Assembly (NCBI GenBank): GCA_029856145.1
Contig: JAHQWK010000001.1
Coordinates: forward strand, 64,001-128,000
Reading direction: 5' to 3'
From: Promethearchaeia archaeon
GTDB taxonomy: Archaea; Asgardarchaeota; Lokiarchaeia; Sigyniarchaeales; SOKP01
Length of the DNA: 64,000 nucleotides
Part shown: one piece after another, positions 31,102 through 49,284 of the stretch
Layout of the letters: each line of letters opens with the position of its first letter
Numbering within the stretch: position 1 is the stretch's first letter
The notes under the pieces: generated by a model
What the model was told of the DNA's origin: nothing
What the model saw: the letters and a program-made list of their open reading frames with translations, nothing else
The model's database searches: none
Made by a program: the position numbers and the translations under genes

Positions 31102-31593
31102 ATTCACTTAGTCCTAACTTTTTTCCATCAAATTAATGGCCCGAGTGTTTTATTATCATATCCAGATGAAAAATTAGAAGAAGAGATTATCAGCTCTCTA
31201 ATTAAATTCTTTGACCTGGAAATCAACGAAACGTTTTTTGAAATCGTTCTTATCACAAAAAAAAAGAAAATTATTAATTTTCATTTTGAGATCCCGTCTG
31301 AGTGGGCACGTGGCAAAAAAGAATTTGCTATGCTCTCTTTGATAATGAAAATAGAATATAACAGTGAAGATCTTTATGCATTCCTCGTAGACTCGAGCTA
31401 TAAAATCCTAAAAACAGAGAATGTTTATAAAGCATTTTATAAGGATTCAGATTTTCATTATAATGATATAGAAATCGATCTTAACTATGAGATAATAAGA
31501 AAAATACTCTTTGATTGTTTAACTAATTTAATATCAAGAATTGAGGATAAAATTAAAGGATTAGAGAAAAAGGATCCTTTTCCTTTTACTTAA
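31102..31593 (+). CDS. Longin/uDENN-like domain protein (163 aa from an ATT start)
   Basis: GGTGA RBS then ATT; HLVLTFFHQINGPSVLLSYP and IPSEWARG..AMLSLI match the F-H/D-xxx-GP..P and ARG motifs of uDENN longins; the track caught only the C-terminal half. Confidence 0.7.
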   Translation: MHLVLTFFHQINGPSVLLSYPDEKLEEEIISSLIKFFDLEINETFFEIVLITKKKKIINFHFEIPSEWARGKKEFAMLSLIMKIEYNSEDLYAFLVDSSYKILKTENVYKAFYKDSDFHYNDIEIDLNYEIIRKILFDCLTNLISRIEDKIKGLEKKDPFPFT

Positions 31594-31639
31594 AAATAGA
31601 AACTAAAAAAAGAATTTTACTTTCCTTTAAATTATAAGT

Positions 31640-31938
31640 ATGTCGCCTGAAACACTAACACAGTCTTTTTCATCTCAAGGAATTCTACCCTTTAAATCAA
31701 AGGCGTTCTCTCATGCCAGGCATTTAAAACGTTGGGACATAATCATGTCGCAAATCTGGGTTGCTGACTCTACATTCATTGCTGTGGTTTTTACCATCGC
31801 TCTGTAAAGAGCCCGTATTATTTTTGCATTTACTGATTATTAAACTCTAGATATTCGCATTAGTTTGCACTGCATAATCATTTTTTCATCATATGAGTCC
31901 TCGAACACGCGGTTATTCCATCATCGTTTTCCCATCAA
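31640..31938 (-). ncRNA. Unassigned ~300-nt structured RNA candidate
   Basis: About 38% GC by hand count versus much lower GC in flanking intergenic DNA; multiple hairpins; no convincing ORF; strand inferred from an upstream AT-rich box. Confidence 0.5.
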
Positions 31939-32025
31939 TATAATAGATTATTAAAAATAAAAGTTTTATTATAATCCCAATTTTGATGAAAAAATTCAAA
32001 TTAGTAAGTTGCTATTTAATTTAAA

Positions 32026-32496
32026 TTACAGCATACCTATAGAATCAGACCTAAACAATTCCTTTACTTCTTTACTAAGATCTGCCTGATCGGCTTGTAA
32101 ATATCTATTTAGTATCAAAGATATTTTTGGAGCATATTTCTTCATAGTGGCTCTAATAAATCCTATCTGAGCATTTTTATCAGCTACAATACATAAAACG
32201 CCTTTACCGACTTTCATCGAAAAAATCATACCTTCAAGATATTCTGTAATTTGAAGGTCTATAGTCCCATAACCTAGAATATGGCCTTGTTCCTCTCCTG
32301 CCACAAAGACTGCGCCCCCAATAGCACCAATCTTTTCTACAGAAATTCCATTCTGATCAGAAAATTTAAATTTAGCTTGACTTAGAATTGTTATCCCTGT
32401 ATCATCAGTGATGAGAGCAAACTTTAATCCTGGCGTACTATTTATGATTAAAGTTAAAATCTTCTTTAATCTAAGCTCATCCTCGGAATAACTCAA
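32026..32496 (-). CDS. Roadblock/LC7 domain protein
   Basis: TPGLKFALITDDTGITI..EKIGAI..LCIVADKNAQIGFIR pattern. Confidence 0.85.
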   Translation of the reverse strand: MSYSEDELRLKKILTLIINSTPGLKFALITDDTGITILSQAKFKFSDQNGISVEKIGAIGGAVFVAGEEQGHILGYGTIDLQITEYLEGMIFSMKVGKGVLCIVADKNAQIGFIRATMKKYAPKISLILNRYLQADQADLSKEVKELFRSDSIGML

Positions 32497-33216: not shown

Positions 33217-34194
33217 TTATTTATTGTTTCTCTTTAATGATATCCCCAAGTTCAAATTTTCTACGAGTTCACTGAAGCGATTTCGAACAGTAACTTCTGT
33301 TACGCAACTAACACGAGCAATTTTTCTTTGAGTTCTCCTTTCATTAGATAAAATACAAGAAGCATAAATGGCTGCTGCACAAACCCCAGTAGGCCCTCTA
33401 CCAGAGGTTAAACCCCTTTCTTCTGCCATTCTAATTATTATCTTTGCCGTTTTTTGGCATTTATTTGTCAACCCTAACTCTGAAATAAATCTTGTAAGAA
33501 AATCGATCGGTTTGGTAGGATTTAATTCCAAAGATAATTCATTTGATATAAATCTAAAAGATCTACCAATCTCTTTCTTATCAACTCGTGCAACTTCGGC
33601 TATCTCTTTTAATGTACGTGGAACCTTATACATTCTACAAGCAGCATATAAACTAGCAGCAGCTACTCCTTCTATACTTCTTCCACGAATTAAATGAGCA
33701 TGAACTGCATCTCGGTATATTTTAGCTGAGCATTCTCTCAAATTCTTTTGAAGATCAAGGTTAGAAGCCATACGATCAAGTTCGCTTAATGCAAATGTAA
33801 GGTTTCGTTCAGTTGCATCAGATACTCTAATACGACTCTGCCACTTTCTAAGTCTATATATTTGTCCTCTCAATTTAGCAGGTATCTCTTTCCCAAAAAT
33901 GTCTCTATTTTTCCAATCTATCATAGTACTAAGCCCTTTGTCATGTATCATATAAGTCATAGGAGCACCTGTCCTTGTTCTCTTCTTTTTTTGTTCAGCA
34001 TCAAAAGCTCTCCATTCTGGACCACTATCAATATGTTTTTCTGAATGAACTAAACCACATTCCTCACAAACTAATAACCCTCTATTCTCATCAAAAAAAA
34101 TGTTTTTTCCACATTCATTACAAATATCGATTTCTGTATTCGAGTCGTCATCTAATGCAGATTTCACATCTCTCCAACTTGAGATAAAATACAC
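33217..34194 (-). CDS. tfb: Transcription initiation factor B
   Basis: Zn ribbon CNEC..CEECG, B-reader GPEWRAF, two cyclin repeats (RGRSIE, SGRGP), VTEVTVRNR. Confidence 0.97.
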
Positions 34195-34247: not shown

Positions 34248-34502
34248 CTAACTTATTTTTGTAAAGATTTTATCATCGGGATTAAACGATTGATTAGGTA
34301 AGGCTTTAATTGAAATGAAAGGAGAATCTTCAGGACCAAATACGTCTTTAATGAATCCAATTTTCTCGTACTTTTCGTTATAGATAGAATTTTTAATAAT
34401 TTGTTCTAATTTATTATTCCATTGTTTCGCTCTAAAAATTTGATGATTTTTCGATGATTTTCCAACATAGAATAGACTCAATTTAACCCAGTTCTTTTTC
34501 AA
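34248..34502 (-). CDS. gar1: H/ACA RNP protein Gar1/Naf1
   Basis: IGFIKDVFGP..PFISIK motif; conserved position upstream of tfb. Confidence 0.8.
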   Translation of the reverse strand: MKKNWVKLSLFYVGKSSKNHQIFRAKQWNNKLEQIIKNSIYNEKYEKIGFIKDVFGPEDSPFISIKALPNQSFNPDDKIFTKIS

Positions 34503-49191: not shown

Positions 49192-49284
49192 GCGCGATTA
49201 GTCTAGTGGTTAGGATCTCGGCCTTCCATAGGTAGAACTAACTGAAGATAGCCGATGACCCGGGTTCAATTCCCGGATCGCGCA
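49192..49284 (+). tRNA. tRNA-Gly(TCC) with a 21-nt canonical intron at 37/38 (49229-49249)
   Basis: Acceptor GCGCGAT/ATCGCGC-A, anticodon stem TCGGC/GCCGA, T-arm CCGGG-TTCAATT-CCCGG; BHB central helix CTTC/GAAG. Confidence 0.93.

Follow-up and report, generated by a model that had tools for sequence, protein, structure and literature searches.

A conserved RNA gene of a Lokiarchaeial genome with the probable anatomy of a three-hairpin box H/ACA guide

Main finding

The stretch of DNA analysed here (the window; 64,000 nt, within which all coordinates are counted) carries a genuine and conserved non-coding RNA gene of ~300 nt on the minus strand, at about 31636-31936. Judged from sequence comparison, its product is probably an RNA of the box H/ACA type with three guide-like hairpins, transcribed from the minus strand by a promoter of its own. 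By its three-hairpin anatomy and one complementarity to rRNA it belongs with the archaeal pseudouridylation guides of the multi-motif box H/ACA type. One of the hairpins, arm A, most likely guides the conversion of a uridine to pseudouridine in the catalytic core of the 23S rRNA. The preliminary description of this DNA, made from a single sequence, had proposed a novel or highly divergent non-coding RNA. The RNA is indeed a genuine structured one, but the H/ACA anatomy and the rRNA complementarity speak against a new class: it is of the known box H/ACA kind with extra folding elements.

The gene, its promoter and its neighbours

The gene is delimited by the span of the homologue alignments and by the match of R1, a covariance model built from the copies of the genus, which covers 31628-31936 of the window with 267.7 bits. 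Its 5′ end is inferred from the promoter, and its 3′ end is placed a few bases beyond the last ACA box. A TATA-like box, CUUUUAUUUUU (31953-31963, minus strand), forms a conserved block in a 52-sequence alignment that includes the upstream flank. It reads UUUAUAA in most relatives. The conserved 5′ UGGGA follows about 22-25 nt downstream, a spacing that suggests promoter function. T-rich runs are found downstream of the RNA 3′ end. The G+C content is 36-37.5% over 31600-31899 as compared to 22-28.5% in the flanking spacer, an enrichment that had drawn attention to the region from the start; neighbouring coding DNA has 33-38% GC, and the RNA region does not exceed that. The limits and the strand proposed in the preliminary description were nearly exact.

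The RNA gene sits between two convergent genes, a longin-like ORF on the plus strand that ends at 31593 and a roadblock-like ORF on the minus strand at 32026-32496 (Pfam MAPKK1_Int, 25 bits). Further along lie tfb (33217-34194; TFIIB, 156.6 bits) and, adjoining it on its upstream side, a Gar1-like ORF of 84 aa (34248-34502, minus strand) 2.3 kb from the RNA. The latter scores 26.1 bits with Pfam Gar1, below the cut-off of 29.3, and annotation pipelines may leave it unnamed. The other H/ACA proteins Cbf5 (429.9 bits) and Nop10 (52.5 bits) are encoded in the source genome with scores over their cut-offs. The gar1 gene is found 2-6 kb from the RNA in the source genome and in three others, belonging to two families, with varying orientation; in the two genomes from family f4, gar1 and the RNA lie on separate contigs.

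The roadblock-like gene lies 90 nt upstream of the RNA on the same strand and the neighbourhood is conserved, as would be expected if the RNA were a 3′ UTR or a processed, cis-regulatory tail of the roadblock-tfb-gar1 row. This origin is very unlikely given the conserved TATA-like box at the right distance from a conserved 5′ end, the differing orientation relative to gar1 in other genomes and a conservation, up to the level of the class, that is far above that of a UTR. Elsewhere in the window, at 49192-49284 on the plus strand, is a tRNA-Trp gene; as it is 93 nt long it presumably bears an intron.

Conservation and coding potential

The RNA is single-copy in the source genome. A homologue was present in 23 of 24 genomes of the genus and then, in a larger set, in 52 of 54, always as a single copy, with 68-100% identity over about 300 nt. 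Full-length R1 matches occur in 119 of the 131 genomes of the family, covering 13 genera. Families f2, f4, f5 and f7 of the class have weaker full-length matches (54-112 bits), and two of the genomes concerned have a G+C content of 57-58%. Second, partial copies were seen in two genomes: one (G086:C17:42375-42465) consists of arm C alone and lies about 500 nt from the full copy, the other (G087:C124:1-179) comprises arms A and B and is at a contig end.

The source genome has an ATG-started ORF of 55 codons on the plus strand (31640-31807), whose codon-level conservation had been named beforehand as evidence that would refute the RNA reading. No reading frame is conserved among the 52 homologues, in which the longest open frame varies in both strand and frame. 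Of 331 indel runs, 326 are not multiples of three, and substitutions track base pairing rather than codons. A protein encoded by this or any other small frame can be set aside with near certainty.

Searches with known RNA families

At the gathering threshold, an Rfam scan of the whole window returned only a tRNA and left the RNA region without a match. A permissive scan (E up to 10) of the region and four distant homologues gave chance-level matches only. The model of HgcG, the Pab40 family (RF00064), does not match the window copy or the same four homologues at E up to 10. An Rfam search and a test for covariation had been proposed in the preliminary description as checks on a structured Asgard RNA outside Rfam; both bear it out, with no strong family match in the former and covariation present in the latter.

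At about 300 nt the RNA has a size that would suit RNase P, SRP or another universal RNA in divergent form. The idea of RNase P arose because the source assembly shows no RNase P match. The preliminary description had found the canonical RNase P and SRP motifs absent, and that reading of the motifs was right. Neither RF00373 (RNase P) nor RF01857 (SRP) matches the RNA locus, even weakly. RNase P RNA was found in most relatives: in 20 of 24 it maps to other loci, with 119-136 bits. The SRP RNA of the source genome is on another contig (83.8 bits). The identity with a universal RNA is refuted by these locations. In the source assembly (G000) RNase P RNA and 23S rRNA were not found, and of 16S rRNA only the first ~700 nt are present, at a contig end; the missing parts are probably assembly gaps. 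In one relative (G017:C66:15325-15981) two RNase P RNA matches of 130 and 91 bits lie head to tail, in what looks like a tandem duplication.

A fold with three H/ACA-like arms

Folding of the single sequence is uninformative. It does no better than shuffles (z -0.44 for the minus strand and -0.04 for the plus strand), which is not evidence against structure; hairpins read from one sequence alone accordingly prove nothing. The fold described here was derived from alignments and contains 79 pairs in 15 helices. In A2, a sequence-only MAFFT alignment of 52 copies, 86.8% of the cells are paired as compared to 39-42% when the partners are slid by 1-3 columns, and 39 pairs change on both sides as compared to 10-22 in the slid controls. 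Any of five fold measures was reached by none of 500 shuffles. In A3, a class-wide alignment, 68 of the 79 pairs are compensatory, a figure biased by the fact that A3 was fitted to the model.

The RNA is organised in three long arms. In each, a lower stem leads through a large internal loop to an upper stem with a terminal tandem G-A, and an A-N-A triplet follows the lower stem on its 3′ side after 0-2 nt. This is how the archaeal H/ACA motif is defined, and one to three such motifs per RNA are known (PMC2377435). The A-N-A boxes of the source genome are AUA in arm A and ACA in arms B and C. In arms A and B both A residues are the same in all 52 copies, and the box of arm C is ACA or AAA in every row inspected. 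No arm shows any variation in its tandem G-A, and the stem that carries it counts 10 layers in arm A as in arm C, and 12 in the family's version of arm B. The strands of the internal loops measure 8/8 nt in arm A, about 7/11 nt in arm B and 6/4 nt in arm C. Some dimensions count against the H/ACA reading: the lower stems have 5-7 bp as compared to 9 in crystallised Pyrococcus guides, the 4-nt loop strand of arm C is below the usual H/ACA range (5-11 nt each), and the bulge beside its G-A pairs possibly has 1 nt and not 3.

Arm A and its predicted target in 23S rRNA

Arm A (motif 1; 31852-31911, minus strand) has stems that are 93-94% paired with compensatory changes. The lower stem (31907-31911 with 31856-31860) and the upper stem (31892-31898 with 31869-31876) flank a loop whose strands would act as the 5′ guide GUUCGAGG (31899-31906) and the 3′ guide GCAAACUA (31861-31868), both complementary to 23S rRNA. 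A K-loop (31877-31891) caps the arm and the AUA box (31852-31854) follows it. Productive H/ACA folds have been described as "10/j/k" with the ANA box 14-15 nt away from the upper stem (PMC4652768, PMC2377435). Arm A has just such dimensions, with a 10-layer G-A stem and the box 14 nt from the upper stem; arm C agrees in the 10-layer stem. The cores of its loop, UCGAGG and GCA, are invariant.

The two guides are complementary to 23S rRNA at CUUGC-UU-CCUCGAUG, on both sides of the UU, with 4-5 plus 6-8 bp. The register of the guides is fixed by the covarying stems. In this register each of the 52 arm A guides pairs with this site by 9 bp or more (10.9 on average). It is the only site of its kind, and three divergent guide variants all rank it first, at p about 0.01 when compared to shuffled rRNA. 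When the register and the choice between UN and UNN are left free the match weakens to p about 0.04; since chance alone scores as high in free-register target scans, only structure-fixed registers were used. The site is found in the genus's own 23S rRNA (G047, G001, G045 and G069). In family f2 the guide of G030 pairs by 4+8 bp with the 23S rRNA of the same genome.

The predicted target is the U directly 5′ of UCCUCGAUG in the 23S rRNA of the lineage. It aligns with the C preceding ACCUCGAUG in E. coli 23S rRNA, which we take to be C2496 in standard numbering, provided that A2503 is the A of CGAUG. The UU is at the 3′ end of helix 89, beside the peptidyl-transferase loop, and the target U is the last base of that helix. 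Yeast has known pseudouridines at Psi2826, Psi2865 (the snR46 site) and Psi2880, spaced 39 and 15 nt apart; a human counterpart of snR46 is marked in the same table as the yeast sites. In P. abyssi, Psi2549, Psi2588 and Psi2603 have the identical spacing of 39 and 15 nt and are said to be conserved in eukaryotes. In the 23S rRNA of G032, from a related order in which the positions were counted, there is a U at -39 and at +15 from the target. On the basis of this identical spacing the target U is equated with P. abyssi Psi2588 and yeast Psi2865, and would be their equivalent. In P. abyssi, motif 1 of Pab40, a three-motif sRNA, is responsible for Psi2588, whose T. kodakarensis counterpart needs Cbf5, Nop10 and Gar1.

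The 23S alignment is interrupted near position 2720 of G032, by ~770 nt in L056 (G045:C35) and by ~120 nt in L057 (G041:C48); there is no such interruption in G047. These are size-variable insertions in domain V/VI, possibly introns.

Arms B and C

All helices of arm B (motif 2; 31740-31839, minus strand) covary. They are a basal helix (31834-31839 with 31740-31745), a lower stem (within 31821-31829 and 31749-31755), an upper stem (31803-31813 with 31766-31775), a K-turn (31799-31802 plus 31776-31782) and an apical hairpin (31783-31798). The A-N-A of the ACA box (31746-31748) is invariant. The lower stem comes in three unrelated sequence versions, CCUG/CAGG, CUGCA/UGCAG and UGCAAA/UUUGCG. Against the guide reading count, in this arm, the species-dependent distance of 12-19 nt from ANA box to upper stem and loop strands that differ from family to family.

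Arm C (motif 3; 31641-31721, minus strand) consists of a lower stem (31713-31721 with 31645-31655), an upper stem (31699-31706 with 31660-31669), a tandem G-A (31697-31698 plus 31670-31672), an apical hairpin (31673-31696) and an ACA box (31641-31643). The upper-stem pairs covary: at two positions A-U, U-A, G-C and C-G are all seen in A2, and CAC/GUG becomes CAU/AUG in family f4. The ANA distance is 16 nt in the source family and 14 nt in f4. The loop strands GAGAGA (31707-31712) and GUUA (31656-31659) are unchanged in the homologues read, from genomes of 30% to 58% GC, with the single exception of a family f2 copy (L100) in which one base of GAGAGA is missing.

No significant target was found for arms B and C in rRNA, tRNA or SRP RNA (p 0.15-1). 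GU-rich matches of these arms at 23S positions 849 (G047) and 2264 (G032) were rejected, being within the null range and not common between genera. The tRNA part of the test is weak, since the parsed ARAGORN output listed only 11 tRNA genes in the source genome (3.55 Mb). Such a count would fit multi-intron tRNAs overlooked by standard finders. GAGAGA and GUUA are complementary to UCUCUU and UAAC, the two flanks of the helix 69 loop. As a guide for helix 69, arm C would form 4+4 bp round the U at the E. coli 1921 equivalent, or leave 6 nt unpaired, with p about 0.7. Such pairing is not significant, and the complementarity is a lead, not a result.

The preliminary description had listed four hairpins and four long-range pairs. 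All of them can be read in the minus strand, and comparative data keep two of the eight, both in arm B: UGGU-AAAA-ACCA is its apical hairpin and UGAUUAU/AUAAUCA its basal helix. The hairpin GCUCU-UUAC-AGAGC is impossible in most relatives and its halves pair elsewhere. GACAU-GAUU-AUGUC would exclude two covarying helices, both halves of CCUUU-N5-AAAGG pair with covarying 3′ partners, and the sides of GACUC/GAGUC each pair inside their own arm. The pairing GGAAU/AUUCC near the ends and the pseudoknot AAAACG/CGUUUU involve positions that are non-conserved or otherwise paired.

Additional helices and a C/D-like K-turn

Four features that are conserved and covary lie outside the known H/ACA anatomy. 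The first, helix H1, joins the 5′ end of the RNA to the segment after arm B. Its 5′ strand AUGGGA (31930-31935, minus strand) pairs with UCCCAA (31732-31737) and 90% of its cells in A2 are paired. Across the class five of its six pairs change on both sides, and in f4 it reads GCGGG/CCCGC. The second is a C/D-like K-turn that encloses arm A at its base. The 5′ strand (31918-31929, minus strand) is C-box-like and made up of the C-stem AAAC, the bulge GAU, GA and UGG; the 3′ strand CUA-GA-GUUU (31842-31850) is D-box-like. The C-stem covaries (CAAC/GUUG, AAAC/GUUU, AAAU/AUUU and AAUC/GAUU) around an invariant GA. Other versions are CAAC-AAU-GA-UGG with CUU-GA-GUUG and, in f4, AAUC-GCU-GA-CGA with UCC-GA-GAUU. 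The third is a helix directly 3′ of the arm B ACA box. The fourth is a helix enclosing arm C, both strands of which are missing together in a subgroup that includes the source genome. Every ANA box is directly followed by a helix; textbook H/ACA RNAs have no such helices, which counts against the assignment.

At the C/D-like K-turn neither a C′/D′ pair nor a methylation guide is evident. In a box C/D sRNA an antisense element of 10-12 nt would end 5 nt upstream of D or D′; here the bases before the D-like strand belong to the ANA box and lower stem of arm A, which leave no free guide. Most probably the element acts as a protein-binding clamp and nothing more. A 3′-terminal D box (CUGA in UAUGCUGAU) was considered and rejected, as only some species carry the CUGA.

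These elements bear on what the RNA might do other than guide. It could be a scaffold or a regulatory RNA, rich in K-turns, to which L7Ae or other proteins bind, with the arm A match being fortuitous or a relic. Two of the three arms are without a target and have spacings off the 14-15 nt rule, closing helices and a fourth K-turn are unnecessary for guiding, and the loop strands of arm C show an invariance that would suit a protein-binding or tertiary motif. Such a role is nonetheless improbable, because the arm A core (UCGAGG, GCA) is invariant throughout the class while the surrounding stems change, and because arm A matches a proven guide-dependent pseudouridine site of Thermococcales in the correct register and with the correct ANA distance.

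For the box H/ACA guide that the data favour, L7Ae would be predicted to bind the K-turn or K-loop of each hairpin, and Cbf5-Nop10-Gar1 its lower stem and A-N-A box. Through the pairing of arm A, Cbf5 would receive the first U of the UU, at the equivalent of E. coli C2496, as its substrate for pseudouridine formation. Arms B and C may direct modification elsewhere or have a role in assembly alone. The three further helices and the C/D-like K-turn would tie the hairpins into one compact fold, presumably for stability or as an extra L7Ae site. A more far-reaching version, which we regard as rather doubtful, has the three hairpins forming one closed particle. H1, the helices after the ANA boxes and the fourth predicted L7Ae site would lock the modules together, and arms B and C would hold rRNA and not act as canonical UN guides. 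The complementarity of GAGAGA/GUUA to the flanks of helix 69 is an example of what such holding could look like.

Relation to known H/ACA RNAs

The closest parallel, and one whose mode of action the present RNA would share, is the group of Pab40, Pf7, Pho40 and Afu4 (HgcG, RF00064) in Thermococcales and Archaeoglobus, which likewise has three H/ACA motifs per transcript with a K-turn or K-loop and ANA box (PMC2377435). Motif 1 of Pab40 is aimed at the same 23S position as arm A, the equivalence being drawn from the spacing. As the RF00064 model gives no match, homology or family membership with Pab40 is not established. The Pab40 group is about 230 nt in size as compared to about 300 nt here and has longer lower stems, whereas H1, the helices after the ANA boxes and the C/D-like K-turn set the present RNA apart from it. 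Yeast snR46 (25S Psi2865) serves the same rRNA position, beside the peptidyl-transferase centre. In contrast to the RNA described here it has a hairpin-hinge-hairpin-tail structure with H and ACA boxes and no K-turn.

U85 and similar eukaryotic scaRNAs carry H/ACA and C/D elements in one transcript. A C-/D-box-like K-turn beside an H/ACA motif, as here, is also a feature of Pab21 (RF00065) (PMC2377435, PMC4652768). Unlike in Pab21 and U85, the C/D-like K-turn here encloses motif 1, and a methylation guide and C′ and D′ boxes are not evident. Another multi-hairpin archaeal H/ACA RNA is sR-h45 of Haloferax volcanii, which acts on the helix 69 loop and on 23S domain V (PMC5029457, PMC7075261). 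Going by its description in these sources, it differs from the present RNA in having two hairpins and modifying positions 1940, 1942 and 2605.

Implications

Asgard archaea encode the H/ACA proteins, and the probable guide RNA presented here escapes Rfam. A full-text search of the literature found no description of Asgard H/ACA guide RNAs, which is not proof of their absence. The practical gain is one of annotation. Where gene finders predict nothing, or a spurious ORF of 55 codons, there is an RNA gene, and R1 detects it in five families of the class. With its additional covarying helices and C/D-like clamp, the RNA indicates that H/ACA RNAs can exceed the Pyrococcus paradigm in elaboration. 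If the closed particle were true, a composite, scaRNA-like H/ACA architecture would exist on the archaeal side of the Asgard-eukaryote split. The predicted target is among the few pseudouridines common to Thermococcales, yeast and human. An RNA-guided origin of this modification before the archaeal-eukaryotic split thereby becomes testable.
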